A DNA stretch of 64,000 nucleotides from Candidatus Enterousia sp. (lineage in GTDB: Bacteria; Pseudomonadota; Alphaproteobacteria; Rs-D84), in contig JAZRIB010000013.1 in assembly GCA_045645065.1 (NCBI GenBank), forward strand, positions 230 through 64,229, read 5' to 3'. How positions within the stretch are numbered: the stretch's first letter is position 1; each line of letters starts with the position of its first letter. Shown one piece after another: positions 12,295 to 63,011 of the stretch. The notes under the pieces were generated by a model. That model saw only the letters and a program-made list of their open reading frames with translations. It ran no database searches and was not told the DNA's origin. Position numbers and translations under genes: made by a program.

Positions 12295-14547
12295 ATGGCC
12301 AAGAAGTTCAACTTTTTATCAGCGTCCGGCAAAGGCAAAGGCCTGGGGATTTTCAAATCTACATCTTACAAAGAGCATGAAAAGACCCCAATGGCGCAAA
12401 TATTCTGGCGAATCCGCTGGGGGTGTGGCATATGGATTGTGTGTGCGCTGGCGTTTGCAACTACTTTTGCGATTGAACATGTCTGGCGTTATGGCTGGTC
12501 CCCGGCCAGTTCGGTTTGGGTAAAAACATATTTTATGAATCTGGTGCACAGTGGCGGATTGTCCGCATTGGCTGAATTGCCATCTTGGGTATGGCGTTGT
12601 GTATATCGGACCGACATGGCATGTATGGTACCGCTGTTACCGATAATCGCATACTATTTCTTGGCAGACGGAACGTTTACAGATGAATTTAACCCACACG
12701 GCAAAGATAAATTTGATGAAAAATCTTCAAACAAAGCAACTGCCGCTGATATAAAACAAATGAACCAGGACTTCCGAAACAAAGATGGTTTATTCAAAGG
12801 GTTTATGATGGTTTTGGGATACTTTAAAAACAAAGGTAAAAGTGTTCCATTAATGTTTGACGAATGTTTATCCGCATTGTGTGTTGCGCCCCCCGGAACC
12901 GGTAAAACAAAGGGGTTTGTTGAACCGACGATTTTAGAATGTGATACTGTATCAATGATTATTAATGACCCAAAACCCGAATTAAAGCAGGAAACCAGCG
13001 GTTATCGTGCAACGGTTGGGCCGGTGTTTATTATGAACTGGGCGGGTCAAGATGACCCTGCACGTGGTATATATTACCCGTCATGGAATCCGTTATCTCC
13101 GGAACACGTACCGTTTAATACCGAACAACGTGATTTGTATATTGATTCAATTTGTAACACATTAATCCCAGACCGTTCGGGATCATCCGCCGACCCACAC
13201 TGGACAATCACGGGTCGTGCGGCATTGACCGGATTTGTTCAATATATAGTGTCCAAGGTTGAACGTGCCAAGGCAGACGATTACTTCTATGCACGCATGG
13301 CAAACGGCACATTTAATGCCGAAGATGCAGCGGTACTTTCTGATTACTATTTGTCTATGATGACCGATCCAAACGCATATGCCGCACACGCAATGTTGCA
13401 ACGTGGGGAATTAAACGCAATGAACTATGTCCATGTTGGAACATGGGCGCATATCCCAGACGTTTGGCGTGGCAAAGAAGCATCTTTTCCAATGATTCTG
13501 GACTGGTTAACCACCAGCCAGATTGATATCGCACGTCAAATGGACGAACGTCGTCGCGCGGGCGATCAAATGGTTATGATGGCCGACCCGCTAAAAGATA
13601 TGTTACAAGAAGCGGTTGCAGAAGCGCAACAATACGCATATTCACATCGTGCAGTCCAAGAATTAACCCAGCTTGCCAACACCCCAGACAAAGAACGTGG
13701 TTCTATTATGTCGACAGCGTTGTCGGGTCTGACTATTTTCCGTAATGCGGCGGTACGCAATCGTACATCACATTCTGATTTTCATTTTTCAGATTTGCGC
13801 GGAATGCGCGATCCACGCGATGGCAAGGTCAAGCCCGTTACGGTCTATTTATCCATAAATATGGTTGATGCCCAGGCATTAAATCCAATTACCGCGATAT
13901 TTATTGAATTAATGTCGAACTTCTTGTTGGCAAATAAACCAGGCGACACGCATAATGGCGAAGAATTGGGGCCGTATCCGGTACTGTTTGTATTGGACGA
14001 AATGCCCAAAATGCAAAAAATGCAGGCCGTTATCCAGGGGCCAGATTTGGGACGTGGACAAAAAATATCATACCTGTTAATTGGCCAGGATTTAAACCAG
14101 ATTGCCGAAAAATATGGGCGTGAAGCCGCTGATACAATCATTTCAACAACTGCTGCAAAAATTGTAATGCGTCAAAACGACCCGAAAAGTGCGGAACGGT
14201 TTTCCGAAATGATGGGTAAAAAAATGAAAAAAGAAAAAGGTGCCGATGGCAAGGAAGTCACCAACGAATCATTGCTTTATACCCCAATGGATATTATGAA
14301 ATTACCAGAAGCGAAACAGTTGGTTATTATTCAGGGACATTATAATCGTCCAATCGAAGCAGACCAAGAAAGATGGTTCTTGAACAAAACACCTGTTCAA
14401 AAAGAATTGTATAAAAAAGTCCAAATGGGCGAAGCACCACCATTACCAGAATTCTTGGTGCCGTCGCATCATCGTGCGCTGGGGTTTGCAGGGACGCCGA
14501 AAATTTATTATCCCGCGACCAAGGAAATCAAGGTTTTATCCGAATAA
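12295..14547 (+). CDS. virD4: type IV secretion system coupling protein (VirD4/TraG family)
   Basis: Two N-terminal TM helices, Walker A APPGTGKTKG, Walker B-like VLFVLDEMPKM, and the conserved LIGQDLNQIAEKYG block. Confidence 0.85.
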   Translation: MAKKFNFLSASGKGKGLGIFKSTSYKEHEKTPMAQIFWRIRWGCGIWIVCALAFATTFAIEHVWRYGWSPASSVWVKTYFMNLVHSGGLSALAELPSWVWRCVYRTDMACMVPLLPIIAYYFLADGTFTDEFNPHGKDKFDEKSSNKATAADIKQMNQDFRNKDGLFKGFMMVLGYFKNKGKSVPLMFDECLSALCVAPPGTGKTKGFVEPTILECDTVSMIINDPKPELKQETSGYRATVGPVFIMNWAGQDDPARGIYYPSWNPLSPEHVPFNTEQRDLYIDSICNTLIPDRSGSSADPHWTITGRAALTGFVQYIVSKVERAKADDYFYARMANGTFNAEDAAVLSDYYLSMMTDPNAYAAHAMLQRGELNAMNYVHVGTWAHIPDVWRGKEASFPMILDWLTTSQIDIARQMDERRRAGDQMVMMADPLKDMLQEAVAEAQQYAYSHRAVQELTQLANTPDKERGSIMSTALSGLTIFRNAAVRNRTSHSDFHFSDLRGMRDPRDGKVKPVTVYLSINMVDAQALNPITAIFIELMSNFLLANKPGDTHNGEELGPYPVLFVLDEMPKMQKMQAVIQGPDLGRGQKISYLLIGQDLNQIAEKYGREAADTIISTTAAKIVMRQNDPKSAERFSEMMGKKMKKEKGADGKEVTNESLLYTPMDIMKLPEAKQLVIIQGHYNRPIEADQERWFLNKTPVQKELYKKVQMGEAPPLPEFLVPSHHRALGFAGTPKIYYPATKEIKVLSE

Positions 14548-23904: not shown

Positions 23905-24004
23905 ATGGTTATATTAGAAAGTAAGATAACTTTCCCTTTTCATTTATAAAATTTATTGCTATAGTGCAATTGCTAAAACAATAAAAACAAAAAAGGATGG
24001 AAAA

Positions 24005-24670
24005 ATGGCAACAAAATCAAACGTAAATCCAGTTGCAAAAAATTATGCAAAAATTGGAATTATTGCCGCAATTGTTATCGCAGTTGCAGCATGTGGCACA
24101 TGGCTGGTGGCCAGTTTGAATAGTAATTCTGGTGCATCTGTCGAAGAATCGATGGAAATGGTATCTGGCGATGCTGCAAATGCGTCAAATCTGCGTATTG
24201 CTGTAATTCGTATGGATGCGATTCAAACAGACGCTGCGGCATTAAAAGATTTGCGTAAACAGAAAGAAAACTATGAATCTAAATTGCGTGATGAATTAAC
24301 AAAACGCCAGAAAGAACTTGAAAAAGAAAAGACAGAAATCGAAAAATCCCAAGACGTTTTGTCACGCGAAGCATTGCAACGTCGTGTCGTTGATTACCAA
24401 GGACGTGTTAATGATTTGCAACGTGATTTAACAGAACGTGCACAAAGTATTGAAAAATCATACCAGAAAGCATTAAGCGAAGTTCAAACAAAACATTTGG
24501 ACCCAATCATCGAAGGTACAATTGCAAAAAAGAAATTGTCATTGGTTGTTGATGGTCGTTTTGCACGTGTTGGTGCCGATGCAGAAAATCTGGATATAAC
24601 AGAAGAAATCGTAAAAGCTTTGGACAAGAAAGTATCAAAAGTTAAAATGGATACACCAAAGGGTTTCTAA
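24005..24670 (+). CDS. OmpH/Skp-like periplasmic chaperone
   Basis: N-terminal anchor or signal, then a long coiled coil (KQKENYESKLRDELTKRQKELEKEK...) and a terminal LSLVVD block typical of the OmpH family. Confidence 0.7.
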   Translation: MATKSNVNPVAKNYAKIGIIAAIVIAVAACGTWLVASLNSNSGASVEESMEMVSGDAANASNLRIAVIRMDAIQTDAAALKDLRKQKENYESKLRDELTKRQKELEKEKTEIEKSQDVLSREALQRRVVDYQGRVNDLQRDLTERAQSIEKSYQKALSEVQTKHLDPIIEGTIAKKKLSLVVDGRFARVGADAENLDITEEIVKALDKKVSKVKMDTPKGF

Positions 24671-24682
24671 AAAAACAAAAAC

Positions 24683-24712
24683 AAAAGATTCCCGCCAAAT
24701 GGCGGGTTTTTT
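24683..24712. terminator. bidirectional terminator between the skp-like and OmpA-like genes
   Basis: Stem cccgcc/ggcggg with aaat loop, followed by T6. Confidence 0.75.
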
Positions 24713-25388
24713 ATCGCACAGGCGCAATACGTAATTCAACGCGTCGATTGGTTAAACGTCCGATATCGTCTTGGGCTGCAATAGGGCGGGTTGCGCCACG
24801 TCCTATGATAAACAAACGTGTTGTATTTATGTCATGCTGACTAAAATAAACACCGACCCGTTGTGCCATATCCGCCGACAGCGCATTTGACGCAACTGTA
24901 TTTTGCATTGCGTCTGTATATCCAGCGATTTCAATAAACGTGGCATCGTACTGTTTTAATATTTTACTGATTGTGTTAAGTGTATCGTCGCCTGTTGCAG
25001 ATATTTGCGCGGCATTTAATTCCATAATTGCATCACGCACCAGTACGACAACAACGTCTGTCCCTGCGCGTTGTACGGAAATTCCTGGTTTTCGCAAACT
25101 GTCATAAAGTGCAAATTCCAATTCAGACATATATTTTATAATTCGTGCGTTATCATTTGCTAATTTGTCCCCATATTCTGATACAGGTTTTGTTACATTT
25201 TCATCCAGAATAACACGTCCGCCCGCCCCCAGATATACAGGTCGCTTAGCAATGCGTGCAGTATCAGTCATGTCTGAAAAACTTGCCCCGTTCAAATAAT
25301 GCGTCCATGTTGTGCGTTCCGGACTGGCGTACGGTGCACAAGCACTTAAAACGATTGAAAAAAAACAAAGTGCTAAATTTTTATGCAT
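24711..25388 (-). CDS. lipoprotein with C-terminal OmpA/MotB-like peptidoglycan-binding domain
   Basis: Lipobox VLSAC. C-terminal IEIAGYTDAMQNTVASNALSADMAQRVGVYF...GRLTNRRVELRIAP matches the OmpA_C pattern. Its start is 1 nt after the pilin-like gene stop. Confidence 0.8.
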   Translation of the reverse strand: MHKNLALCFFSIVLSACAPYASPERTTWTHYLNGASFSDMTDTARIAKRPVYLGAGGRVILDENVTKPVSEYGDKLANDNARIIKYMSELEFALYDSLRKPGISVQRAGTDVVVVLVRDAIMELNAAQISATGDDTLNTISKILKQYDATFIEIAGYTDAMQNTVASNALSADMAQRVGVYFSQHDINTTRLFIIGRGATRPIAAQDDIGRLTNRRVELRIAPVR

Positions 25389-25850
25389 TTACTCTATGAT
25401 AAACGATATTTGATTTGTCGGTGTTGAAAAACAGTTGTCTGACCCTGGACGCAATTCGTATCCATTAACAACGATACTGTTTGTCCAATCTGGAATTGCT
25501 GTTGAAAAATAAGCGCATTCACCCTGTGTTAAATCGGTCAAGTTGATTGAAAAATATTGTCCGTCTGCGCTGGGGGTCACAGACCATTGTTCGCCACCCA
25601 GTGGTGACTTGTCAGATTTTAATGCGCCCGCCTTAATCAAATAGTCAACAGAAAGCCCATAATAATCGCCACGCATTTCCATCAATAGTTTTACATCGTT
25701 TGCAATCTGTTTCAATTGTGATGATGCGATTGAACGTGCGTTGTTGTCGCGCATCATGCCGTACATACCGATTGCAGCCGCAACCATAACAGTCCCCACA
25801 GCGATAACGCCAACAATTTCAATCAAAGAACGCCCTGATTCTGCTTTCAT
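25389..25850 (-). CDS. type IV pilin-like protein (PilS-like by recollection)
   Basis: Short basic leader MKAESG, then RSLIEIVGVIAVGTVMVAAAIG (Glu at +5). C-terminal Cys pair (LTQGECAYF ... DNCFS) like a pilin D-region. AGGAG RBS. Its ATG overlaps the dnaX stop (TAATG). Confidence 0.7.
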   Translation of the reverse strand: MKAESGRSLIEIVGVIAVGTVMVAAAIGMYGMMRDNNARSIASSQLKQIANDVKLLMEMRGDYYGLSVDYLIKAGALKSDKSPLGGEQWSVTPSADGQYFSINLTDLTQGECAYFSTAIPDWTNSIVVNGYELRPGSDNCFSTPTNQISFIIE

Positions 25851-27418
25851 TATTTTACTCCTACGATTTCTGCGTTTTCAAACAAACTCATTGCACTGGC
25901 AATCATTGGGTCTGCGGCTAATTCTTCTTGTTTTTGTTCTGTGATTGTATGTGTATGCACAGATTCAACCATTCGTTCCATTTGCCATTGTTTGCCCGTT
26001 TTATCCATTAACCAAGCGGCAAGACGTGGTGCAAAATCTGCATCACCTTTGCGATCAAAGTATTTGATTTTATTATCTGCGATTTCTGCAACTTCTATAT
26101 TGCTGGAATAATACGAATATAACAGTATTTCTTTTGATTCCTGTAACAATTTTGCCAATTCAATTGCCGATGTGATTTGTGGGTATGCCGGTGTGGCGGG
26201 TTGTGTTACCTCTTGTACAGGGGCGCGATTGTTAAGTGCATCACGTACCGCATTTGCATTTGGGCGCGCGTTTGTATCGTTTTGCTTCATTAATTCAGCC
26301 ACCGTTGGCATATCTGCGATATGCATCATACGAATAATTAACATATCAAAGCATTGTTTTTGATTTCCGCTGGCTTGCATTTCTGGGACGGCTGCTACCA
26401 TAACCTGCCAGATACGGGACAGTGTGTTCAGTGTCGCAGTCTTGTTAATTTCACGAATTTGATTTCGTTGGTCGGCGGTATATGGTGAATTTGTAACTTC
26501 GCCTGCGTGCAGACTTGGGTGCATACGCGTTGCCCAATGTGTCCATTCCATCATATCCAGCAACAACATTGATAAATCTGCGCCATTGTTGTAAATCGCG
26601 TCAACTTTTTCCAATGCGGCGGCGGTGTTTCCAGATAACACTGTTTTCATAAAATCTACAACAACCCCGCGGTCGGCGCGCTTTAACATGTCCAGTACAG
26701 ACGCTTCGTCAACGTGACCGCCAGTTTGTGCGATTGCCTGGTCTAGCAAAGATAACCCATCACGCACAGAACCGTCCGCGGCACGTGCTAATAATTCATT
26801 TGCCCCATCAGACAGTTCGATTTGTTCTTGTTCTGCAATCCATGCAAAATGTTTTTTTAATGTATCAACCGGTACACGCATCAAATCAAAACGCTGACAA
26901 CGTGATAAAATAGTTACAGGCACTTTTCTAATTTCTGTCGTAGCCAGAATAAAAATAACATGTGCAGGTGGTTCTTCTAATGTTTTCAACAGCGCATTAA
27001 ATGCACTGGTTGACAGCATATGTACTTCGTCGATGATATAAACTTTATAGCGACCATTTGTCGGGCGGTATTGTGCCGCATCCAGAATATCGCGCATATT
27101 ATCAACACCGGTGTGTGATGCGGCGTCAATTTCCATAACGTCGATATGTTGACCGGCTGCAATTGTGCGACAATTTTCACACGTGCCACATGGTGTTGCG
27201 GTCGCGGTGTCCGATGACAGACAATTTAATGCCTTGGCTAAAATACGTGCTGTACTGGTTTTTCCAGTTCCGCGAATTCCAGTAAAAATATATGCGTGTG
27301 CAATACGTCCTGTATTAATTGCGGTGGTTAATGTTTTAACCAAAACGTCTTGCCCGATAAGTGTTTGAAAATCTTGACTGCGATATTTTCGTGCTAAAAC
27401 TGTATAGTTGCTATCCAT
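25850..27418 (-). CDS. dnaX: DNA polymerase III subunit gamma/tau
   Basis: GIRGTGKTSTARILAKALNC Walker A, zinc module CGTCENC, and IIDEVHMLS. Start set to ATG 27418 (MDSNYTVLARKYR), which has an AAGGAAG RBS. Confidence 0.93.
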   Translation of the reverse strand: MDSNYTVLARKYRSQDFQTLIGQDVLVKTLTTAINTGRIAHAYIFTGIRGTGKTSTARILAKALNCLSSDTATATPCGTCENCRTIAAGQHIDVMEIDAASHTGVDNMRDILDAAQYRPTNGRYKVYIIDEVHMLSTSAFNALLKTLEEPPAHVIFILATTEIRKVPVTILSRCQRFDLMRVPVDTLKKHFAWIAEQEQIELSDGANELLARAADGSVRDGLSLLDQAIAQTGGHVDEASVLDMLKRADRGVVVDFMKTVLSGNTAAALEKVDAIYNNGADLSMLLLDMMEWTHWATRMHPSLHAGEVTNSPYTADQRNQIREINKTATLNTLSRIWQVMVAAVPEMQASGNQKQCFDMLIIRMMHIADMPTVAELMKQNDTNARPNANAVRDALNNRAPVQEVTQPATPAYPQITSAIELAKLLQESKEILLYSYYSSNIEVAEIADNKIKYFDRKGDADFAPRLAAWLMDKTGKQWQMERMVESVHTHTITEQKQEELAADPMIASAMSLFENAEIVGVK

Positions 27419-27812: not shown

Positions 27813-27964
27813 ATTATTTCTTTTGTTGTATGGAAAGTTTTTCTCTATTAATTTCACATAAATACTGAAATCAACGAAACAGATGTTAATCTATCTGAAA
27901 ACTGATTGCAATATTTTTTTTCTGTTGCTATTCTTGGAATTAAGTAGGGGGGGATATCAAACAA

Positions 27965-29320
27965 TTGCGTAAACAATCTGGTAATTTTCTTGTCCAGGCA
28001 TTATTAGCATTAACGCTGATATTTGCATTTATACCATTTGTTGCGACGCAACTTGCTGCGCGCAATGTTGATGCGCAAATGTATTCTGCCACGCGCCAGA
28101 TAAACAATGCATCGGCTGCGGCGCGTATATTTATCCGTGAAAACGTCCGTCATATTTCTTATGGGCAAACAATTGTAGCGGGCGATGATTTTGCAGATGT
28201 TCTGGAACCTTATGGGCTGCCATTGGGGTTTGTGCCGCGTACCGCCCTTGGCCAGGATATTGTTCTGGTTATGAATAAAACCCCGATGGGGATTTCTGCG
28301 CATCTTGATATAACAGGTGGTGGGTTATCTGAATTAGAATTGGCTGAATTAATACGACGTGTTGGTTTTTATGCATCATCTATTGAAAATGGTATTCGTG
28401 TTGGTGTTGTGTTAACTGATGATTATTCAGACGTTGTTCGTCGTAATGAACTTGATTTAGATAACAGTGGATTTTTAACCAATATTGATTTGGGGAACAA
28501 TTCTTTCTTGAATGCAGGTAACGTGTTTGCTTTGCGTGGCGATTTTGTATCGGGCCAGTTTACAACGTTGTCTATTGTTGGTACAGAATCAGGTCGCAAG
28601 GCGCAAAATGATATAAAAAATATTACAGCCAATAAATCAGTATTTCAAAGTCGTACCGGCGAAGCAGCATTGGCCTTGTTGCGTGGCACATTAAAACTGG
28701 GGACGATGGACGCGCGCACTGTGTCCAAGTTTGGCGAAGGTTCAAACTTTACTGCAAATTCAGCCGCGGTTTCTGATTTTTCAATGACTGCTGGTCGTAC
28801 AGCGTTTACAGGCCCTGCAAAATGGAATGTTCATGGCAATGTTGCAACCAGTAACATCAGTCTTAGTACAGAACGTCTGGATATAGATTCGTATCTAAAT
28901 GTTGCGCGCGGTCAAGATGTGTTTGTTGATGCGGACACGTTGGAATACAGTACAAAAAGTGGAATCGAAGCAGGGACAGTATACGCATCAAATATAACAG
29001 TTCGTGATCAAACGTCCCAGGGTTTAATTGGTGGGGCAGGTGGGGCGACAATCCTTGAAATTCGTCCTGCTGGTGCGTCATTGTTGCCAGATGTTTTAGT
29101 TGATTCTATAAACAATGATAAATTTGCTATTTTGAAAAACCCATCTGCTGATAATGGCGACGTTATCACGTGCAAGGATATTATTATTGATTTTGGTGGT
29201 GTGTATAATTCCAAATCATTGGCGCAAAATTTAATATGCCAATACGTTTTCTGGCAGCGTCTGGAACACAGAATACAAATCAAACAATGTTTAATGGCGG
29301 GTGGCAATGATTGTATTTAA
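27965..29320 (+). CDS. giant pseudopilin-like protein, paralogue 1 (PilV-like by recollection)
   Basis: TTG start behind a G7 RBS. Leader MRKQSG, then NFLVQALLALTLIFAFIPF (Gln at +5). Shares an N-terminal helix, a mid-protein motif (NIDLGNNSFLNAGNV) and length with the next two genes. Four Cys lie in the last 50 residues. Confidence 0.7.
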   Translation: MRKQSGNFLVQALLALTLIFAFIPFVATQLAARNVDAQMYSATRQINNASAAARIFIRENVRHISYGQTIVAGDDFADVLEPYGLPLGFVPRTALGQDIVLVMNKTPMGISAHLDITGGGLSELELAELIRRVGFYASSIENGIRVGVVLTDDYSDVVRRNELDLDNSGFLTNIDLGNNSFLNAGNVFALRGDFVSGQFTTLSIVGTESGRKAQNDIKNITANKSVFQSRTGEAALALLRGTLKLGTMDARTVSKFGEGSNFTANSAAVSDFSMTAGRTAFTGPAKWNVHGNVATSNISLSTERLDIDSYLNVARGQDVFVDADTLEYSTKSGIEAGTVYASNITVRDQTSQGLIGGAGGATILEIRPAGASLLPDVLVDSINNDKFAILKNPSADNGDVITCKDIIIDFGGVYNSKSLAQNLICQYVFWQRLEHRIQIKQCLMAGGNDCI

Positions 29321-30512
29321 TACAAAAATCTTTGCGAACGAAATGCGTGGTGCCAGTGTTATGGAAGTACTATTGGCGCTTGGTATTGTTGCGTTGGCAA
29401 CCCCGTTTGTATACAGTCAAATTTCGCGCAGCACCCAAACAGTACGTGATATGGCGTATGCGCACCAGATTATAGATGTTCGTGACAGTGTTTTGAATTT
29501 TGTTCGCATGAACCAAGATAAATGGCCAGATGTTGCACAAATTCGTCTTGATTCAGAAGAATTGCGTGCGATATCAGATATGCCTGTGGCGGGTCTGATT
29601 GATAAATATTCTGTACGTGGTGCAACGATAACAGATGTGTATTTAGCGTATGAAATAGGCGATGATTTAATGGCAACTGCACGAATTGCGTCACATATTG
29701 GTTCTGATGCGGCGGTTGTGTCTGATGATGGGGTGGCGTATGGCCCGTCATGGGCGGCATCTGCCCCAGATTTTAAGCCTGGGGATTTAGTGTATCGTAT
29801 AACACGTGATGTATCCGGTTCAGATACATCGCAATATTTGCATCGTGCAACATCGGGCGAAGACGAATTAAATGTAATGTTTCGTGATTTGAATATGGGC
29901 GGATACAATGTTTATAATGTTGCGTCTGTTGATGCTGATTCCGTACGTGCCAAAGAAGCAACGGCGTTTTTTGTAAATGCAAATGATATAACGGCTGAAA
30001 ACGTATATTTTTCATCTGGCGCAAACATGGAAGGGGGCGATGTTTTTATTGGAAGTATGCGTGTATCTGGCGATATAACAGGTTTCAGGGATATTTATGC
30101 AGATAAAATGAATGGCACGACATATACAACATCGGGTCGTATTATTGCAGACAAAGCAACTGTAACCAAATCGATAAACATTTCACGGGATTTGGTGTTA
30201 AAATCGGATACATCAAAAACAATCAGTGGTTTTGCAGGTTTGTCGACTGGGACTGTTGTTGCGCCTTTTTTATCAACCGAAGAAATTGTTTTTTATGAAG
30301 ATTTTGGTTTAACTGTATCTGGTGAATTATTGGTATCGACTGTTGCGCCGATTCAGATTGGTCGCTGGGTTTTTCCATCGACAACGCCACCGCGCTTTTC
30401 TAAATTTACAATATCGCGTACTACAAATCCATCAATGCCAGACAAACAAGAATTTGATGCCATAATGAAATCTGGCTGGATGCAGTCCGATGTGATAAAA
30501 CCAACGGAATAA
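29307..30512 (+). CDS. giant pseudopilin-like protein, paralogue 2
   Basis: Leader ...FNTKIFANEMRG, then ASVMEVLLALGIVALATPF (Glu at +5). Motif YLHRATSGEDELNVMFRDLNMGGYNVYNV. The start is uncertain: GTG 29301, ATG 29307 or ATG 29343. Confidence 0.7.
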   Translation: MIVFNTKIFANEMRGASVMEVLLALGIVALATPFVYSQISRSTQTVRDMAYAHQIIDVRDSVLNFVRMNQDKWPDVAQIRLDSEELRAISDMPVAGLIDKYSVRGATITDVYLAYEIGDDLMATARIASHIGSDAAVVSDDGVAYGPSWAASAPDFKPGDLVYRITRDVSGSDTSQYLHRATSGEDELNVMFRDLNMGGYNVYNVASVDADSVRAKEATAFFVNANDITAENVYFSSGANMEGGDVFIGSMRVSGDITGFRDIYADKMNGTTYTTSGRIIADKATVTKSINISRDLVLKSDTSKTISGFAGLSTGTVVAPFLSTEEIVFYEDFGLTVSGELLVSTVAPIQIGRWVFPSTTPPRFSKFTISRTTNPSMPDKQEFDAIMKSGWMQSDVIKPTE

Positions 30513-30513
30513 C

Positions 30514-31845
30514 ATGAAGCAACAAAACAGATTTTTTTCTGACATTATAAACAATTCTGTACGCGGCAGTATGCTGGTTGAATTGCTTTTAAGTGTGGCG
30601 TTGGCGGCATTGGTCATACCGTTTATATTTCAGTATCATCAAAATGCGGCCGTGCGCGCCCAGAATATTGCAATTACACAAAATATGAACGCTGTTCAAA
30701 AAGTTCTGGAACGTTATATTGTTGAAAACCGTTCTGATTTGTTGCGCACAGTTGGTAAAAATATAACACGTGTAAATCCCGAAGAATTATCAGAATACGG
30801 TCTGTCCCCTGTGATATTAGAAAACGCAGACAAATATCAATTGCGGATTCTAAAATCCACAGACGCCACCGGCAGTGCGACCTTGCAAGGGGTTGTTGTT
30901 TATACATCGCCTGATATAACGCCAATTCGTACACGTGAAATTGTAAATATTGGTGGTACGAATATGGGGTTTGTAGATGGCACACGTGCGTATGGTGCGT
31001 ACGGTGCGTGGCGTAATGATATGGCTGATATTGGAATTAATGCCACAGATGGTATTGTTGGCACAACGTCTGTTAAGCGTGATGCTGCGCTGTATTTGGT
31101 ACGATTACCATCAGATAACTTAGATGATGCAACAATGATGTCGCCGCTTAATCTGGGGGGGCATGATATAGTCAATGCAAAATTCTTTGATGCGACATCG
31201 GTCCAGTTTAATGAAGATTTGAATTTGAAAACAGGTGTTGCGCGCGACCTTATCTTTCAAAATCGTACCGCCATAGATACCACTTATACATCCCAGACCG
31301 CAACGGTTGCCGGTGGTTTGTCTGCGGATGGTCGCACGATGGATGTTTCTGGTAAATTCTTGTTGGCAGACATTGGGAAATTTGCATCGTTTACTGTTGG
31401 TGATTTATGGACTACGACAATGACATTGTCTGGGCTGTCGATTGATGCCTATGATGACAGTTATCGTGAACAGCCTGCGATATTAAAGGTTGCAGGTGCG
31501 CTGGATATGATTTCTGGTCGTATAGAAGCGATTTATACGACGGTTGGTTTTGCGGGTTCAATTACACCGCGTTTGGTTGTGTATGACAGAATCGAAGATT
31601 CTCGTAATAAAAACTATTATTGGGATGTTGCGTCGTCTACTGCAAACTTTGCAGATGTAACGCTGGCGGAACTTAATCGTTTGGCGACACTTGCATCACG
31701 TTTTGAACGTGTATCCGGCACAGACAGTACGCAATTGTTTGGTGGTGTTGTCGCAAACAAGAATGCGACAGCAGGCGATTTTATGAATGCGCTTCGTGAA
31801 ATTCAGGTGCGTGTTCGTGCGAAATATAGCCTGTTGAAATTATAA
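30514..31845 (+). CDS. giant pseudopilin-like protein, paralogue 3
   Basis: Leader MKQQNRFFSDIINNSVRG, then SMLVELLLSVALAALVIPF (Glu at +5). Motif LYLVRLPSDNLDDATMMSPLNLGGHDIVNA. It starts 1 nt after the paralogue 2 stop. Confidence 0.72.
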   Translation: MKQQNRFFSDIINNSVRGSMLVELLLSVALAALVIPFIFQYHQNAAVRAQNIAITQNMNAVQKVLERYIVENRSDLLRTVGKNITRVNPEELSEYGLSPVILENADKYQLRILKSTDATGSATLQGVVVYTSPDITPIRTREIVNIGGTNMGFVDGTRAYGAYGAWRNDMADIGINATDGIVGTTSVKRDAALYLVRLPSDNLDDATMMSPLNLGGHDIVNAKFFDATSVQFNEDLNLKTGVARDLIFQNRTAIDTTYTSQTATVAGGLSADGRTMDVSGKFLLADIGKFASFTVGDLWTTTMTLSGLSIDAYDDSYREQPAILKVAGALDMISGRIEAIYTTVGFAGSITPRLVVYDRIEDSRNKNYYWDVASSTANFADVTLAELNRLATLASRFERVSGTDSTQLFGGVVANKNATAGDFMNALREIQVRVRAKYSLLKL

Positions 31846-31870
31846 TAATTTGTGGTATAAGTGGGTTGAT

Positions 31871-32395
31871 ATGAAAATAACATGTGATTTTTGCAAGACA
31901 GAATATAACGTTCAGTCACGTCCAGGTTCGTCTGTTCGTTGTGCGATTTGTGGCAACACTTGGACTGTGCCGGCCCCAGCGCGTAAAAATGCATTTTTAA
32001 TGTTTTTTGCATCGTTGTGCGCACTGTTGTCGGTAATTGTATTTGCGGTTGCGATTGTTGTTACACATAAACCAGACCCAGACCGTGATGCACCATTGAT
32101 TGCACGTGTATCTGGGCATGAAATCATAACAAATGACGATGGTGTTCGTCATTTGGTTGTTTCGGGTACTGTTACCAACAAAACGTCTGATATTTACGGT
32201 ATGCCAGACGTTATGATTGTGTTGCGTGATGCAGATGGTCGTGTCATATCGCACCAGAAATTTATGCCGTCTGCGACATTGATTGATGCGGGTGCGACAT
32301 CGGATTTTAAGTACACTTTGTCTGCACCTGTATCATCAAATATAAAAAGTATAGATGCGCGTTTGATTGTAGATGGGGGGAAAAATGATAAATAA
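31871..32395 (+). CDS. ZitP-like protein: MJ0042-type zinc ribbon + TM helix + DUF3426-like domain
   Basis: MKITCDFCKTEYNVQSRPGSSVRCAICGNTW (CxxC...CxxC), TM FLMFFASLCALLSVIVFAVAIVV, then a beta-rich C-terminal domain (LVVSGTVTNKTSDIYGMPDVMIVLRDADGRVI). Confidence 0.72.
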   Translation: MKITCDFCKTEYNVQSRPGSSVRCAICGNTWTVPAPARKNAFLMFFASLCALLSVIVFAVAIVVTHKPDPDRDAPLIARVSGHEIITNDDGVRHLVVSGTVTNKTSDIYGMPDVMIVLRDADGRVISHQKFMPSATLIDAGATSDFKYTLSAPVSSNIKSIDARLIVDGGKNDK

Positions 32396-32855
32396 AATAC
32401 TAGCGTGTTTGTTTGGTTGTTTTTTTGCTGTATCTGCGTTTGGTGCGTCGTCTGAAAGTCTTGCGCCACGCGTATCGATTTTTTCAACCAGTACTGATTG
32501 GGAAGCGGTCACAGGTCGTATGTTAAATGAATATCATGGTACGTTTCGTGGTAAATCATCATTGATTGGCCGTGGTTTGATGGTGTATTATCTGGACGGT
32601 TTTCCGTGTTATGGTCTGGGCGACAGTGTTCAAGCATGGATAAGCCCCAATGGTGAATCATCACATCGTCTACGCTTGGCGTGTATTGCTGCGCCCCAGA
32701 CAATAAATTTTGCATGGATTCATGCGTCACGTGATGCGGACGACCAGACAACAACAGGTATCATGACGTGCAAGATTCATAGTGACGGTGGACGTGATTT
32801 TGAAATAGATTTGGCTGATTGCACGCGTGGGCCCGATTGGGATGATTATGAATAA
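32385..32855 (+). CDS. small secreted cysteine-containing hypothetical protein
   Basis: Signal peptide MINKILACLFGCFFAVSAFGA and a G6 RBS 4 nt upstream. It overlaps the zitP-like stop by 11 nt. Confidence 0.6.
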   Translation: MINKILACLFGCFFAVSAFGASSESLAPRVSIFSTSTDWEAVTGRMLNEYHGTFRGKSSLIGRGLMVYYLDGFPCYGLGDSVQAWISPNGESSHRLRLACIAAPQTINFAWIHASRDADDQTTTGIMTCKIHSDGGRDFEIDLADCTRGPDWDDYE

Positions 32856-33926: not shown

Positions 33927-36900
33927 ATGGGAATGTCATTCTTTAAAAAATCGGTAAGTGTTTTGGCTGTTTTTGCTGTAATTCCTGCGGCTTTTGCGGT
34001 AACTGCGCGCCCCAGTGTAACGGCGGTTGCAAACACGGCGTCGCGTCGTTTGCCAACGCTGACGGCATATGTAAATTCAGGTACATCCACAACGGTTGGT
34101 ACAACATCGTCTGGGATATCTGATTCTGAATGTGTCGAAGCATACACCGAATGTATGAAATCAGACGAAGTTTGTGGTTCTGATTTTCAGGAATGCACAA
34201 CCCGTAAATTGTTCCACGGTCAAATGCCAAAGTGTTTGAACGTTTTGTCCCAGTGTTCATCATCTGGAATATCTAATTTGTTTGGGACATCTGCGGTTGC
34301 GTCTTTGGGCGCAATCAAGACCCAAGATTCCAAGACTGGTGAAATTCTAGATTATACATACCCAACCGATGGCAGTGTAATGGGTCAATGGGTATCTGCG
34401 GCGGCGATTAATAACCAGTATGATACATCAACATGCGTAAAACGTTATACATCATGTTTGCAAAAAGACAGTGTTTGCGGTGCAGATTTTGAATTGTGCA
34501 CCACAACCAAAGATTTCAAAAAGCAGGCATTGTTCTGTGATTCAACATTGGCGCGTTGTCAAAGTGCCGGGGTCAAAGAATTGTTTGGTGTGTATCCATG
34601 GACACCGTCCAGTGCAACAATTAATGGTCGTGTATCATCTATGATAGAAGATGGTGCAAAACTGGCGGCGTTAAATGCTGTTTCTACATGTTACAAGGTT
34701 GTAGAACAGTGTTTCTTGGGTGCATGTGCAGCCAACCCATTCCGTTGTATCGAAGGGTCAACATTGGATATGGTTGTTGCTGCGAATTTGGCATCTGAAA
34801 CCCCAGAAAACACTACATACATAGAAGAGGGCGCTACATCCACAGGAACTGTTTCAAAAACAGATGTAAATCGTTTCTTGAAAACGTCTTGTTTGGATAC
34901 AATTGGTTCAAACAAGTATTGTCATATGACATTCCGTGAAAAAACACCGACTAAGGGTGAATTAGCCGATATCGACACCCAAGAAGAAGTTTTTGATGCG
35001 GCAATCGACCAGCGTAAAAAATACGTAGATTCCAAGATTCAAGATATTATGCAGAAATTTGACACCCGTGCTAAGGATAAATGTGCCGACACAATCCGTA
35101 CATGCGCAATGCGTACCTGTGGCGAAGGAATTGGTTCGGTCTGTTATACATCTGTGTTTGATGGTAAAAACGAATCTATTAACAAAGAATCTGTACGTGA
35201 ACAAATTAAACGTGGATGTGAATCAATTGTGAATACAGACACGAATTGTCAATATGCGTATTCTGCGGTTAAAAATGAAGCGTATTCATATTCATACTTA
35301 AACGATGGTGTATTTGATACATTGTTCCCAGAATATGACGAAACAAATAAACAAGACCCAATCGGTGTTGTTGCGTCATTGAATTCAACATTGGCGAATA
35401 ATTACAGTATGTCTGCTATTGCAGAAATGAAGAAACAATGCCAATCCGTCGCAAAAAGTTGTGTCAAGACAATGTGTGGCATCGATTACGTAAATTGCTA
35501 TCGCAATCGTACAGATATTTTATCTGATTTGACTAAATCTGGTGATGATGCGTTTGACAAATCAATGAACAAGGTTGGCGGTGTACTGGATTACACAATC
35601 GTATTAGGGCTATGTATGGAAACCGTCAAAGGGGCTGATGTTTGTGATGAACACCTGAAAATAGAACAGGCGCGTCTGGCCCAGGGTGCAAATTTAACAA
35701 ACAATTGGGGCGCATCATCGTCTGTTCGTGATGGCTGGATTGATGCGGGTGGTTCTAAATCTGTAACAGTTGATACAGAAACCGTACAAAAGGTTGATGC
35801 CAACGGTAATCAAATTTGTGCTAATTCCAAAGGGGACGAAGGAATCTGTTATCAAATGGACGCTGATGCGGACGTATATGATGAACCTGTATATCAATCA
35901 TATAAAACATATCTGACGACCCAGGCGGCGACATCTTTGTTCCGTGAACTGATTTCGGACATTGAATACGAAGCCCAGGCAAAATATAATGCGAAACTGA
36001 CGAAACAGCAAAATATGTGTATGTCGGCAAATTCTGGCGGAATCATGGGTCAGAATGATTTGGCATCAACATTTATGTGGGCAAAACTGAAAAATAACAA
36101 AGTTCCAACCAATTATGCATCGGCTGGGTTGAAACCGAACCAGTTTGTGGCCAGCAATGATTTGTATGGTTCGTTCTGTCGTGTACGTGTAAATGTTCAG
36201 TCTGATAACAAAGATATCCAGGATGCTATTAACAAAGGTGCAGATTGGGCAACGGCATACTTTGCCGCCGGCGACAGTTTCACCTGTGGCAGTTGGATAA
36301 GCAGTTCAGATCTTGAAAAAATTGCAAAAATCGTTGGCGAAGATGCACGTAATAATGCGGAATTGTCCCAGAAAGAAAATCTGAAATGGTGGTTGGCGCC
36401 ATTGGGTGCGGTTGCATCTGGTGTTGGCGGTGCTTATCTGGGGGCGGGTATTGCAAACGGTGACGTATTTGGCAAATTATCCGGCCTGAACCCGAACAGA
36501 AAAGCAGGCAACACAGAAAGGGCGATTAATCTTTGTAAGAATCATGTGGCAGATGTGCAGAAATATACAGGAACGGATTTAGTTTCGTCTGCTTATAATG
36601 CAATTAAAGTTGCAAGAGAATTAGATGTGGTTTCAACAGTCATTCAAAAAGCAGTAGAAGAAACAGACGACTATGAATCCAAATATAAAGAATATGAAGA
36701 TTGTATCGAAAAAAATAAAAAGGAATCGGGTAGTTGTACAAAATCAAATCCGTCTGTACAAGTTGTTAGAGATAGATTGCTTTCATTAGGTGAGGCATGC
36801 GAAGCTGTTAAAGGTGAAGAAAAAGATAAAGCAGATACAATAAAAGGTACCAAAATTGCGGCGGGTGTAACCGGTGGCGTGTCTGCGGTTGCAGGTGGCG

Positions 36901-37067
36901 TGTTGACGTACTTTGCTACAAAATCAATCCAGCAAGAAAATCTGGATAAAACACAACAGGCTGCATATCAAAAGTTTATGGATGAAATTGGCAACCATAT
37001 CTATTGCTATATCGGTGGCGAAGAAGCCGGTCAATACGGTGACGTCATCACCACCAGTATGGAATAA
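33927..37067 (+). CDS. large secreted cysteine-rich repeat protein with two Gly-rich C-terminal hydrophobic helices (no recognisable family)
   Basis: Signal peptide ...VFAVIPAAFA|VT, GGAG RBS, and about 40 Cys by manual count arranged in repeated fixed-spacing modules. C-terminal WWLAPLGAVASGVGGAYLGAGIA and IAAGVTGGVSAVAGGVLTYFA. Confidence 0.8.
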   Translation: MGMSFFKKSVSVLAVFAVIPAAFAVTARPSVTAVANTASRRLPTLTAYVNSGTSTTVGTTSSGISDSECVEAYTECMKSDEVCGSDFQECTTRKLFHGQMPKCLNVLSQCSSSGISNLFGTSAVASLGAIKTQDSKTGEILDYTYPTDGSVMGQWVSAAAINNQYDTSTCVKRYTSCLQKDSVCGADFELCTTTKDFKKQALFCDSTLARCQSAGVKELFGVYPWTPSSATINGRVSSMIEDGAKLAALNAVSTCYKVVEQCFLGACAANPFRCIEGSTLDMVVAANLASETPENTTYIEEGATSTGTVSKTDVNRFLKTSCLDTIGSNKYCHMTFREKTPTKGELADIDTQEEVFDAAIDQRKKYVDSKIQDIMQKFDTRAKDKCADTIRTCAMRTCGEGIGSVCYTSVFDGKNESINKESVREQIKRGCESIVNTDTNCQYAYSAVKNEAYSYSYLNDGVFDTLFPEYDETNKQDPIGVVASLNSTLANNYSMSAIAEMKKQCQSVAKSCVKTMCGIDYVNCYRNRTDILSDLTKSGDDAFDKSMNKVGGVLDYTIVLGLCMETVKGADVCDEHLKIEQARLAQGANLTNNWGASSSVRDGWIDAGGSKSVTVDTETVQKVDANGNQICANSKGDEGICYQMDADADVYDEPVYQSYKTYLTTQAATSLFRELISDIEYEAQAKYNAKLTKQQNMCMSANSGGIMGQNDLASTFMWAKLKNNKVPTNYASAGLKPNQFVASNDLYGSFCRVRVNVQSDNKDIQDAINKGADWATAYFAAGDSFTCGSWISSSDLEKIAKIVGEDARNNAELSQKENLKWWLAPLGAVASGVGGAYLGAGIANGDVFGKLSGLNPNRKAGNTERAINLCKNHVADVQKYTGTDLVSSAYNAIKVARELDVVSTVIQKAVEETDDYESKYKEYEDCIEKNKKESGSCTKSNPSVQVVRDRLLSLGEACEAVKGEEKDKADTIKGTKIAAGVTGGVSAVAGGVLTYFATKSIQQENLDKTQQAAYQKFMDEIGNHIYCYIGGEEAGQYGDVITTSME
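34128..34286 (+). repeat. six-Cys module copy 1 (protein-level repeat, residues 68-120)
   Basis: ECVEAYTECMKSDEVCGSDFQECTTRKLFHGQMPKCLNVLSQCSSSGISNLFG; spacing C-x6-C-x6-C-x6-C-x12-C-x6-C. Confidence 0.85.
34431..34589 (+). repeat. six-Cys module copy 2 (residues 169-221)
   Basis: TCVKRYTSCLQKDSVCGADFELCTTTKDFKKQALFCDSTLARCQSAGVKELFG has Cys spacing identical to copy 1, although the DNA has diverged. Confidence 0.85.
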
Positions 37068-61691: not shown

Positions 61692-63011
61692 ATGCGTCAT
61701 ATAACTGTTTCAATCTTTTCGTTTTTGCTGGTTTTGCCTGCGTTTGCAGACGCACGGTTACCTGTTGTGAACCTGGCTTCGGCGGGTGTTTCTGCGCGTG
61801 CTGCGTTTGGTGAAACAATATCAACACCAAATGTTGAAAAAAAGCAATTGCCGAAAAAGAATGTTGTTGCACGTCCATCTGTTAAACGCACATCAAAGCC
61901 GTCACGTGTTGCGATGGATGTTGGCGAAACAAATTATGCATCAAATGATATATTGTTACCTAGTCGCCCCAGCAATGATTTGTGGGCGCATAATTCGTCA
62001 AATTTCGGTACTGCATCCGCAGATGCACCATTGCGTATGCCAAAGCCATCTGAATTCGCGGTATATCGCAGTGATGATGTTTTACCAGAAGAAAATTTGG
62101 ATTCATCATCAATGCCTGTGACATATGCGTATAACGATACCCCCAGTGTGAAATCACGTAACTCTGGTGCCAAGAAGTCTGAACTGGATGAACAAATTGA
62201 TCGCTTGGTTGAATTACAGCGTCGCGCGGATGAAAGTGTTTCTGTTGCGTCTGTAAATGTTGCACCACGTGTAATCGCGCGCCCCATCACAGAAGAAAAA
62301 GCAACGCCGGTTATTGAATCACGTGTGGCGTTGGCGGATGTTAAGCCTGTTGAAACTGTAAATGTTCGTCGTATGGTTGTCCCAATGGAATCACGTGATG
62401 TTGTTGTGCGCAGTGTTGAAAAAAATGAATCACCACGTATTGCTGCGGTACGTGAAGATATGACAAAATTAAGTCCGTCTGAATTACGTCGTGCATTTCG
62501 TAAAACGTTTTTATCTGAAAATAAACACTTGTCAACATATACGATGGATGATGTTTTTGACGTGGTCAGTGATATGGGCTCGTCTTCTGGGTCGTTTACA
62601 TCTGCGCGTGATTTAAGCGAAGATGCTGGAATTCGTCCGTTGGAAATCAAGATTAATTTCCGCAATGATGATTCATCTTTGTCGCGTGATAATTATAATT
62701 TGTTAAGTGAATATGCTGCAATTGTTGTTCATAATCCAACGCGTGCTATTCAGATTGCGATTCCTTCGCATGCAACCACAGATTCTGATACACGTAAATT
62801 AACTGCGCGGCGTTTGGCGATTGTTGAACAGGTGTTGCGTGATACCGGCGTTTCCCAGCAGCGTATTGTGCCTGTGTTGTCACAACGTGACGAATCTGGT
62901 TTTGTTTTACGTGTAATCTCGAATGAACAATTTGAAACGTTGTCACAACAGAAAAAAAATATTTTTGGTGATACGGTTTCTAATAAAAAATACAAAAGTA
63001 TGACGTGGTAA
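61692..63011 (+). CDS. secreted protein with degenerate C-terminal OmpA-like domain
   Basis: Signal peptide MRHITVSIFSFLLVLPAFADA, a long low-complexity region, and C-terminal FRNDDSSLSRDNYNLLSEYA...TRKLTARRLAIVEQVLRDTGVSQQRIV. GGAAGG RBS. Confidence 0.65.
   Translation: MRHITVSIFSFLLVLPAFADARLPVVNLASAGVSARAAFGETISTPNVEKKQLPKKNVVARPSVKRTSKPSRVAMDVGETNYASNDILLPSRPSNDLWAHNSSNFGTASADAPLRMPKPSEFAVYRSDDVLPEENLDSSSMPVTYAYNDTPSVKSRNSGAKKSELDEQIDRLVELQRRADESVSVASVNVAPRVIARPITEEKATPVIESRVALADVKPVETVNVRRMVVPMESRDVVVRSVEKNESPRIAAVREDMTKLSPSELRRAFRKTFLSENKHLSTYTMDDVFDVVSDMGSSSGSFTSARDLSEDAGIRPLEIKINFRNDDSSLSRDNYNLLSEYAAIVVHNPTRAIQIAIPSHATTDSDTRKLTARRLAIVEQVLRDTGVSQQRIVPVLSQRDESGFVLRVISNEQFETLSQQKKNIFGDTVSNKKYKSMTW

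Follow-up and report, generated by a model that had tools for sequence, protein, structure and literature searches.

The 64,000-nucleotide (nt) stretch of Candidatus Enterousia sp. contig JAZRIB010000013.1 (assembly GCA_045645065.1), here called the window, contains three packed open reading frames (ORFs) at positions 27965-31845, all on the + strand, which ORF calling recovered where an initial annotation of this DNA had placed three consecutive pilin-like proteins. We name their products P1, P2 and P3, and the comparisons described below make it very probable that they are PilV-like type IVb minor pilins. P1 (PilV-like minor pilin paralogue 1; 27965..29320, +; 451 amino acids, aa) opens with a TTG start and the leader MRKQSG/NFLVQ, in which the slash follows the Gly at -1 and Gln occupies position +5. 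P2 (paralogue 2; 29301..30512, +; 403 aa) has a GTG start, the leader ...NEMRG/ASVME and Glu at +5, and P3 (paralogue 3; 30514..31845, +; 443 aa) has the leader ...NSVRG/SMLVE, again with Glu at +5. The P1 and P2 ORFs overlap by 20 nt, and a TTG, GTG or ATG start is kept across species at the P1 start position, 27965.

Upstream of P1 lies a putative sigma-70-like promoter (27906..27934, +) made of TTGCAA, a 17-nt spacer and TATTCT. It agrees with the consensus at 8 of 12 positions, which is below the reach of a simple promoter scan, and the block TTGCAAT(A/T)nTTTTTT..TTGCTAT(T/G)CT in which it sits is kept in the roughly 40 species examined. It is followed by the Shine-Dalgarno region GTAGGGGGGG (27944..27953, +), which includes a run of seven G residues; TAGGAGG(GGG) stands at the same position in other species. 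A promoter and terminator scan of the locus returned counts at chance level and no convincing internal signals between P1, P2 and P3, and the three genes appear to be transcribed together behind one conserved promoter. The G7 run (27947-27953) is G6 in contig L001, which is 99% identical and in which P1 was called as 478 aa; the difference may stem from a sequencing error in the homopolymer or from a tract of variable length that affects P1 translation.

Relatives of these proteins are common in one uncultured lineage. A protein collection holds 769 homologues of P3; among the 120 listed no functional name occurs, and those few that bear a name at all are called 'hypothetical protein'. A scan of one genome per species found relatives in at least 200 genomes. 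The best 80 of the 200 are metagenome-assembled genomes recovered from the guts of animals and humans and labelled Candidatus Enterousia or 'Alphaproteobacteria bacterium'. Enterousia, a member of the order Rs-D84, has genomes of 0.75-1.0 megabases (Mb) that lack the tricarboxylic acid cycle, respiration and standard transporters; many biosynthetic and uptake pathways are absent, and its members are thought to depend on partners (PMC12306168).

Homology among P1, P2 and P3

Pairwise BLASTP aligned P2 with P3 at an expect value (E) of 3e-6, with 26% identity over 304 aa, and gave marginal matches of P1 to P2 and P3 (E 0.01 and 0.35). We also built family profiles, each from about 70-80 orthologues per paralogue extracted from fetched loci. 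Aligned profile to profile with hhalign, all three pairs are significant: P1 with P2 at E 3.9e-6 (about residues 2-194), P1 with P3 at E 2.2e-8 (about residues 2-232) and P2 with P3 at E 3.9e-14 (about residues 6-283). The region common to the three proteins is thus the N-terminal 200-280 residues. Four features that the initial annotation had singled out, namely the N-terminal helix, the 'A..I..EN' segment, a Gly-rich block and an LD/LN-(L/M)-G...N motif, fall in the same columns in all of these alignments. At E values of 3.9e-6 to 3.9e-14 the likeness is one of homology and not of shared composition. The C-terminal parts, which had been described as different, indeed gave no alignment between paralogues when the family profiles were compared. 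P1, P2 and P3 are ancient, divergent paralogues; the identity from one to another is only 17-21%.

The shared motif reads VVRRNELDLDNSGFLTNIDLGNNSFLNA in P1 (28433..28516, +), YLHRATSGEDELNVMFRDLNMGGYNVYNV in P2 (29835..29921, +) and LYLVRLPSDNLDDATMMSPLNLGGHDIVNA in P3 (31090..31179, +). The translations agree with those first reported and two of the boundaries needed correction: the P1 motif ends at 28516 rather than 28525, and the P3 motif starts at 31090, position 31093 being that of a Tyr.

Pilin signature and predicted fold

Orthologues of all three proteins keep the residues expected of prepilins. Gly at -1 is invariant in P1, P2 and P3 orthologues, and Pro at +18 is invariant in those of P1 and P3 and conserved in 77-78 of 78 P2 orthologues. 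In the numbering of each protein, G6, Q11 and P24 are invariant in 70 P1 orthologues, G17, E22 and P35 are conserved in 77-78 of the 78 of P2, and G18, E23 and P36 are invariant in 81 of P3. Position +5 is Glu in 77/78 P2 and 81/81 P3 orthologues and Gln in 70/70 P1 orthologues, so that the class III signal-peptide signature, a leader ending in Gly followed by Glu(+5), is carried by P2 and P3, P1 having Gln(+5).

A search of the P3-family profile against sequences in the PDB found Geobacter PilA-N at E 9.6e-7 and 5.7e-6, with the N-termini in register (RG/xMLxELLL against KG/FTLIELL). Weaker N-terminal matches in the same register were to a fimbrial protein (E 1e-3) and GspG (E 0.04), and also to PilA and TcpA. 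The Pfam family N_methyl matched 5 of 25 orthologues, the best at E 0.002, below its threshold. The conserved Gly, Pro and, in P2 and P3, Glu, together with the register of the P3 profile, bear out the description of these proteins as pilin-like.

The AlphaFold2 (AF2) model of P3 has a predicted local distance difference test (pLDDT) score of about 90 at residues 18-190, where an N-terminal helix of 54 residues is followed by a beta-sheet. Its Foldseek matches, to beta-helix, bactofilin and ComZ-like structures, are weak (E > 0.4). The assignment of P1-P3 to the pilins is accordingly one made on the N-terminal signature and on homology rather than on a fold match.

Three other assignments were considered and rejected. 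Bactofilin-like polymers have no family-level match. For the Tad pseudopilins TadE, TadF and TadG, no TadE match was obtained with P1-P3 at E up to 1 or with 25 orthologues. The type II pseudopilins GspH/I/J/K match in the N-terminal helix only and far below cut-offs; the best scores, 15 bits against a cut-off of 44 for GspI (E 0.025) and 13.5 against 130 for GspK (E 0.038), are at chance level.

Relationship to PilV and Shufflon_N

The initial annotation had likened the shared motif to the constant N-terminal region of PilV of plasmid R64, which is described by the Pfam family Shufflon_N (PF04917, cut-off 27.5 bits). We took R64 PilV from NC_005014 and collected 98 PilV proteins for the family. 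The most independent test of the relationship, in our judgement, is an exhaustive search of the P3-family profile against 1.8 billion representative proteins. It found P0222, P0225, P0234, P0236, P0255, P0261 and P0267 at library-wide E values of 1.3e-11 to 5.7e-8 over about 230-260 residues, and Pfam scores these same seven proteins as Shufflon_N at 38-250 bits. In the opposite direction, a hidden Markov model (HMM) of PilV residues 1-300 was run against 6,611 ORFs from the window and 86 loci; the top 116 matches are exclusively P2, P3 and P1 orthologues, with best E values of 2.4e-8 for a P2 orthologue, 1.1e-7 for P3 and 7e-4 for P1. Shufflon_N itself matched 10 of 25 orthologues, mostly picked from the top PilV-HMM matches; the strongest of these, at E 2.9e-6, lies close to the cut-off.

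The family HMMs of P1, P2 and P3 all align to PilV residues 190-240, the very stretch to which the initial annotation had pointed, at single-comparison E values of 8e-7 for P2, 8e-7 for P3 and 2.7e-5 for P1. By hhalign, P2 aligns to the PilV family with a probability of 92% and E 7.9e-7 (P2 174-296 with PilV 191-338); the P3 alignment is weak (E 2.4e-3) but fully collinear over residues 13-233, and that of P1 is also weak (E 1.8e-4). Within the motif, P1 is 48% identical to the PilV segment over 23 columns, the P2 motif aligns to PilV 190-234 and that of P3 is collinear with PilV 195-234. The proposed resemblance is therefore real between families and profiles, and it is distant: the window copies themselves miss Shufflon_N, and the relationship emerges from their orthologues and from the seven Shufflon_N proteins retrieved. 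The initial annotation had named the lack of a Shufflon_N hit as grounds for refutation; such a lack holds for the window copies but not for the families to which they belong. On these profile comparisons the N-terminal domain of P1-P3 is a distant branch of the PilV/Shufflon_N superfamily. Since the window proteins fall below the Pfam threshold and have no shufflon, we do not class them as shufflon PilV proteins; they are a divergent branch of the same superfamily. Their length, first thought unusually large at 400-450 aa, is ordinary in this company, R64 PilV itself having 474 aa.

The P3 family is small (312 clusters at E up to 1e-3 in the profile search), and a Pfam scan of ten distant members revealed no known C-terminal domain, nor any other Pfam domain once the spurious repeat-protein matches P0250 and P0251 were discarded. 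Two distant relatives, P0214 and P0220, are on contigs whose shortness hides their gene neighbourhoods. A search of R64 PilV against PDB sequences gave no relative with a solved structure. The family includes giants: the unannotated proteins P0236, P0259, P0260 and P0233, of 900-1,140 aa, match the PilV N-terminal HMM at E 1e-10 to 1e-13 over roughly the N-terminal 230-270 residues, and only P0236 among them reaches the Shufflon_N cut-off. In P0255 and P0225 the region after the PilV motif weakly matches Bactofilin and the FapA beta-solenoid. The middle of the P3 model, which is of low confidence, gave weak beta-helix matches, and on both grounds PilV-type proteins may have a beta-solenoid as their central part.

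Conservation of the three genes and the shufflon question

In about 80 species, every complete locus holds a single P1, a single P2 and a single P3 orthologue (54-88% identity), always in this order, and a more distant lineage has the same three-gene arrangement with proteins of 504, 444 and 584 aa. In the near-identical strain contig L001 the identity across P1-P3 is 99%. The mean pairwise identity among orthologues is 0.62-0.64 in the N-domains and 0.56-0.61 in the C-terminal parts; the C-termini are not hypervariable and are about as conserved as the N-domains. It is at deep distances only that the region C-terminal to the shared domain changes, and some P3-like proteins of 520-650 aa match the P3 profile only to about position 300-390.

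No Rci homologue was found in the window or in loci L001-L087 (R64 excluded; best E 0.28), and a search for sfx-like repeats gave no inverted 19-bp-type repeat set, only repeats at chance level. Both results agree with the initial annotation, which had seen neither and had suggested that three fixed paralogues encode, in hard-wired form, the C-terminal variation that a shufflon generates. It had also proposed surveying related genomes for copy number and C-terminal diversity, and the survey, which returned one copy of each paralogue and the conserved C-termini given above, goes against that suggestion, as do the 17-21% identity of the paralogues, the Gln5 of P1 and the single promoter. The 1:1:1 retention, conserved C-termini, shared putative promoter and P1 Gln5 are more readily explained by three different subunits of a single complex than by adhesin variants that can stand in for one another.

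Candidate pilus genes at the locus and elsewhere in the lineage

Two kilobases upstream of P1, on the opposite strand, lies a candidate type IVb-like major pilin gene (25389..25850, -), the start of which overlaps the dnaX stop at 25850. Its 153-aa product, p153, has the leader MKAESG/RSLIE. All 62 orthologues compared keep G(-1) and E(+5), and a pair of C-terminal Cys residues is invariant as well. The match of p153 to the Pfam family PilS is weak (E 0.0085), and some sources name its orthologues PilE or 'type II secretion system protein'. The AF2 model (pLDDT 80) is more telling, as the top 14 Foldseek matches in the PDB are all type IVb major pilins, led by TcpA (E 3e-5, probability 1.0, template-modelling score 0.66-0.72) and followed by CofA, with Salmonella Typhi PilS at E 0.08. 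The predicted fold is that of a TcpA/CofA-type type IVb major pilin and makes p153 a candidate for that role. About 70 species share the - strand order dnaX-pilin-ompA, an unusual place for a major pilin.

Directly 3' of p153 is a gene for an OmpA-family lipoprotein (24711..25388, -; Pfam OmpA E 6e-12; NCBIfam YiaD/OmpA-like lipoprotein models matched below their cut-offs), which adjoins p153 in 73 loci and whose link to a pilus is uncertain. Comparison of the window with L001 shows 99-100% identity from about 25907 rightwards, through dnaX, P1-P3 and beyond, and an abrupt fall to 61-79% at 24709-25906, across p153 and the OmpA-like gene; skp (23923-24674) is inverted in L001 and 81% identical. 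This divergence of the pilin locus reflects either allele replacement between near-identical strains or a chimeric metagenome contig.

Genes for the assembly machinery came to light in relatives. In the Enterousia contig L060 a GspE-family ATPase gene, preceded by genes for proteins of 434 aa and 233 aa, adjoins skp-ompA-p153-dnaX-P1-P2-P3, and its product is 33% identical to R64 PilQ (E 3e-38). With this ATPase we fetched 69 metagenome loci, whose copies are 73-96% identical, and mapped three in full (L145, L095 and L099). Their common order is lpxK, lpxC, a small lipoprotein gene and then PilO-like, PilP-like, ATPase and platform genes, which matches R64 pilO-pilP-pilQ-pilR. The PilO-like protein matches PAP_PilO at E 3.5e-6, PilP matches TIGR03021 with 46.5 bits against a cut-off of 34.65, the ATPase matches T2SSE at E 1e-61 and the platform protein T2SSF at E 1.5e-27. 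Homologues of PilO, PilP, PilQ and PilR are thus present in the lineage, and in one Enterousia contig they lie adjacent. Searches with the R64 proteins found no PilL, PilM or PilT in the window or fetched loci. The conserved lipoprotein of about 120-137 aa directly 5' of the PilO-like gene (L145 7479-7877, with equivalents in L095 and L099) has no family match and may be a pilotin or another outer-membrane component.

In the loci examined P3 is always directly followed by a gene for a ZitP-like bitopic protein (31850..32395, +), in which an N-terminal CxxC..CxxC zinc ribbon is combined with a transmembrane segment and a DUF3426-like domain. Translation probably begins at the Met at 31871, which gives about 175 aa. 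It matches MJ0042_CXXC with 23.9 bits against a cut-off of 20.9; across the family, Zn_ribbon_4 is found in 21 of 21 members and DUF3426 in 9 of 21, both below the Pfam gathering scores. In Caulobacter the DUF3426 domain of ZitP is required for pilus biogenesis (PMC5182063). Next in the cluster in all loci is a gene for a 160-aa secreted protein or lipoprotein (32373..32855, +), which has no Pfam or NCBIfam match and is not assigned to a family; from its co-location it may be part of the pilus system.

The locus otherwise lies among housekeeping and envelope genes (dnaX, skp, rluD, rlmN, lptD, lptF/G), with a synteny that is stable across about 80 species, and these neighbours do not make up the setting of a conjugative plasmid or island with transfer genes. 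Further along the window (33927-37067, +) a gene encodes a 1,046-aa Cys-rich protein with a signal peptide, Gly-rich C-terminal hydrophobic segments and no family match; it is kept after rluD in most loci, and the distant lineage L085 has, at the same position, a gene for a 1,120-aa protein that likewise falls in no known family. A 750-aa VirD4/TraG-type coupling protein (12295-14547, +; T4SS-DNA_transf E 7.5e-51), encoded among housekeeping genes, may be a sign that this reduced genome has a type IV secretion system on its chromosome. Positions 63005-63724 (+) encode a member of the ComF family that combines a double zinc ribbon with a phosphoribosyltransferase domain.

Discussion

Based on these data we favour, with somewhat better than even confidence, an overall explanation in which P1-P3 are PilV-class type IVb minor pilins that form a co-assembled tip or initiator complex. 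Each protein is proposed to have three parts, namely a leader with a hydrophobic helix, a PilV-like domain of about 200-280 aa and a beta-rich or helical C-terminal module of its own. A prepilin peptidase would cleave all three after the invariant Gly, and the mature proteins, held together by their N-terminal helices, would prime the assembly of a type IVb pilus as a complex and finally occupy its tip. In this superfamily the tip of a filament is made first and the base last, and growth begins with a minor-pilin complex that is capped by the one subunit without Glu5 (PMC10191384). As P1 lacks Glu5, like the known capping minor pilins, it would be the capping subunit, with P2 and P3, which have Glu5, beneath it; to a joint tip complex with P1 as its cap we give an even chance. 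Below the tip complex the PilS/TcpA-like p153 would polymerise as the major pilin, driven by a PilO-PilP-PilQ-PilR-like machine whose genes presumably lie in another part of the genome; the ZitP-like protein may contribute to placing or building it. The three different C-terminal modules would then form the exposed surface of the tip and may attach it to other cells or to host surfaces. Attachment is the likeliest role because PilV is an adhesin and the organism is probably partner-dependent.

The closest known protein to P1-P3 is PilV of the IncI1/IncI2 thin pilus (R64, TP114). The two sides are alike in size (403-451 aa here, 430-474 aa in PilV), in a short prepilin leader with Gly(-1) and Glu(+5), and in a collinear N-domain of about 240-300 aa with Y-x-x-N, LQ-VV and DG-x-A-x-G-x-x-x-W blocks; the N-domain of P1-P3 also has the PilV block LY-R...-L-(D/N)-x-M...(L/I)-(D/N)-(L/M)-G-x-x-x-(L/I/V)-x-N-(A/V). 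As with R64 PilV, a PilS-like pilin is an apparent partner, together with pilO-P-Q-R-like genes arranged as in R64. Unlike PilV, P1-P3 are very divergent, with window copies below the Pfam threshold, and they are three fixed paralogues instead of one gene, with no Rci or sfx found and no C-terminal switching. One copy, P1, has Gln5, and the host is an alphaproteobacterium with a genome of less than 1 Mb. Whereas the R64 pil genes belong to a plasmid transfer region, the genes described here are chromosomal and scattered over at least two to three loci among housekeeping genes.

Large minor pilins at the tip are also known from CofB of the CFA/III pilus of enterotoxigenic Escherichia coli (ETEC) and TcpB of the toxin-coregulated pilus (TCP) of Vibrio cholerae, which combine a type IVb pilin domain with beta-rich C-terminal domains and form a three-subunit initiator at the pilus tip; the type IVb initiator is a trimer of one large minor pilin, as exemplified by CofB (PMC6048534). 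The predicted TcpA/CofA-type fold of p153 adds to this likeness with CFA/III and TCP. CofB and TcpB are, however, encoded by single genes and form homotrimers, whereas a heteromer of P1-P3 is hypothetical, and PDB searches with the P3 profile and model gave no sequence or structural match to either. Tandem pilin-like genes whose products co-assemble at the tip and prime the filament are found in the GspH/I/J/K and PilH/I/J/K (FimU-PilVWX) sets of type II secretion and type IVa pili, and their cap, the one subunit without Glu5 (PMC10191384), is paralleled by the invariant Gln5 of P1. Those proteins differ in being small (about 120-330 aa), in belonging to other families and in coming in sets of four. 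The product of the gene after P3 resembles ZitP of Caulobacter crescentus in its zinc ribbon, transmembrane segment and periplasmic DUF3426-like domain; ZitP is longer, with 311 aa against about 175 aa, and acts on the Tad/Cpa (type IVc) pilus via CpaM, and no CpaM-like deacetylase was seen.

Several observations weigh against a tip complex of PilV-class minor pilins. The window copies of P1, P2 and P3 give no Pfam or NCBIfam pilin match, and no match to Pfam Shufflon_N, at E up to 1. The P1 and P2 family profiles find no pilin among PDB sequences, and the direct link of P1 to PilV is weak (best E 7e-4), its membership depending mainly on homology to P2 and P3. In the P3 model residues 200-350 are of low confidence, the helical C-terminal part being good again, and Foldseek with the full model found no significant match in the PDB (best E 0.43). 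Pilus assembly genes are absent from the window and were located in relatives. Searches with R64 proteins, and for the peptidase also with the peptidase motif, found no prepilin peptidase in the window or about 150 fetched loci and no secretin (PilN) in the window or fetched loci. A survey of Rs-D84 names type IV pili for another lineage only and not for Rs-D84 (PMC12306168). Finally, the known type IVb tips are homotrimers of one protein, and a heteromeric tip would be unprecedented in the class. Support for a three-subunit tip complex is indirect and consists of three co-conserved paralogues, one of them without Glu5.

The alternative that survives best is that P1-P3 are alternative tip adhesins, each pilus carrying one paralogue or a homotrimer of it, so that the genome would hold a fixed repertoire of three receptor specificities. 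It suits the common PilV-like N-domain with differing C-terminal parts, and in PilV, which is an adhesin, recipient specificity is set by the C-terminus. The failure to find rci or sfx is likewise compatible with a fixed set, and P3-like proteins of deep lineages keep the N-domain and carry longer, unmatched C-termini (584-653 aa, matched to about 335-389). Yet shufflon variants have one identical constant region, and the region shared by P1-P3 is only 17-21% identical. One of each paralogue is retained in every species examined with C-termini no more variable than the N-domains, the three genes appear to be co-transcribed with no visible switch, and the lack of Glu5 in 70 of 70 P1 orthologues implies a distinct structural position (PMC10191384). 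We consider this arrangement unlikely.

A little less probable still, in our estimate, is that the filament serves another purpose, either as a short periplasmic pseudopilus that would push proteins out in the manner of the type II secretion system (T2SS) or of TcpF/CofJ export, or as a DNA-uptake (competence) pilus for scavenging nucleotides, P1-P3 being a priming complex and not adhesins. The ATPase and platform proteins do score best against GspE and GspF models, far below the cut-offs, the N-termini show the weak GspI (E 0.025) and GspK (E 0.038) matches, and no secretin or retraction ATPase was seen in the loci searched. Many biosynthetic and uptake pathways are missing from the organism (PMC12306168), export of proteins by type IVb pili is known, and the ComF-family gene at 63005-63724 would be relevant if the pilus takes up DNA. 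Against this, the predicted fold of p153 is that of type IVb major pilins and not of GspG, PAP_PilO and the TIGR03021 PilP are markers of an R64-type pilus, and no GspC, D, L, M, ComEC or ComEA was seen in the approximately 7% of the genome covered. Large, conserved and paralogue-specific C-terminal modules are also hard to explain in a purely internal piston.

It is very unlikely that P1-P3 form no filament at all and are bitopic inner-membrane proteins with the pilin-like helix as a signal anchor, relics of a pilus lost in genome reduction with another role in the envelope. In favour of this reading, the window and fetched loci yielded neither a peptidase nor a secretin, type IV pili are not reported for the order, and dnaX, skp, rluD, lptD, lptF/G and other housekeeping and envelope genes surround the locus. 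Against it, Gly(-1), Glu(+5) and Pro(+18) are kept across about 80 species in P2, P3 and p153 (P1 with Gln at +5), a signature of processing and filament packing that a plain membrane anchor would not need. Many relatives, despite genomes below 1 Mb, have also kept the genes for the ATPase, the platform protein, PilO and PilP, at 73-92% identity.

We therefore keep to PilV-class minor pilins that co-assemble at the tip of a type IVb pilus. In its most specific form, which we offer tentatively and think rather doubtful as a whole, the proposal is that a chromosomal R64-type thin pilus has been kept in gut alphaproteobacteria with genomes of less than 1 Mb, and that in it three obligatorily co-expressed PilV paralogues have taken the place of the single, shufflon-switched PilV and make up a heterotrimeric tip, a Gln5 cap over two Glu5 subunits, for docking on other cells. 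If true, no heteromeric form of the type IVb trimeric initiator would have been known before. Type IVb tips, which are usually homotrimeric, may here use three different subunits, and could then reveal the order of a tip complex and the way in which it is capped.

The assignment extends the PilV/Shufflon_N family well beyond plasmids and enterobacteria, and three conserved "hypothetical proteins", found in at least 200 species-level genomes of a lineage of uncultured animal-gut bacteria, thereby acquire names and a role that can be tested. That a type IVb pilus is retained despite extreme genome reduction suggests that it has a central role in the presumed partner-dependent lifestyle of these bacteria.

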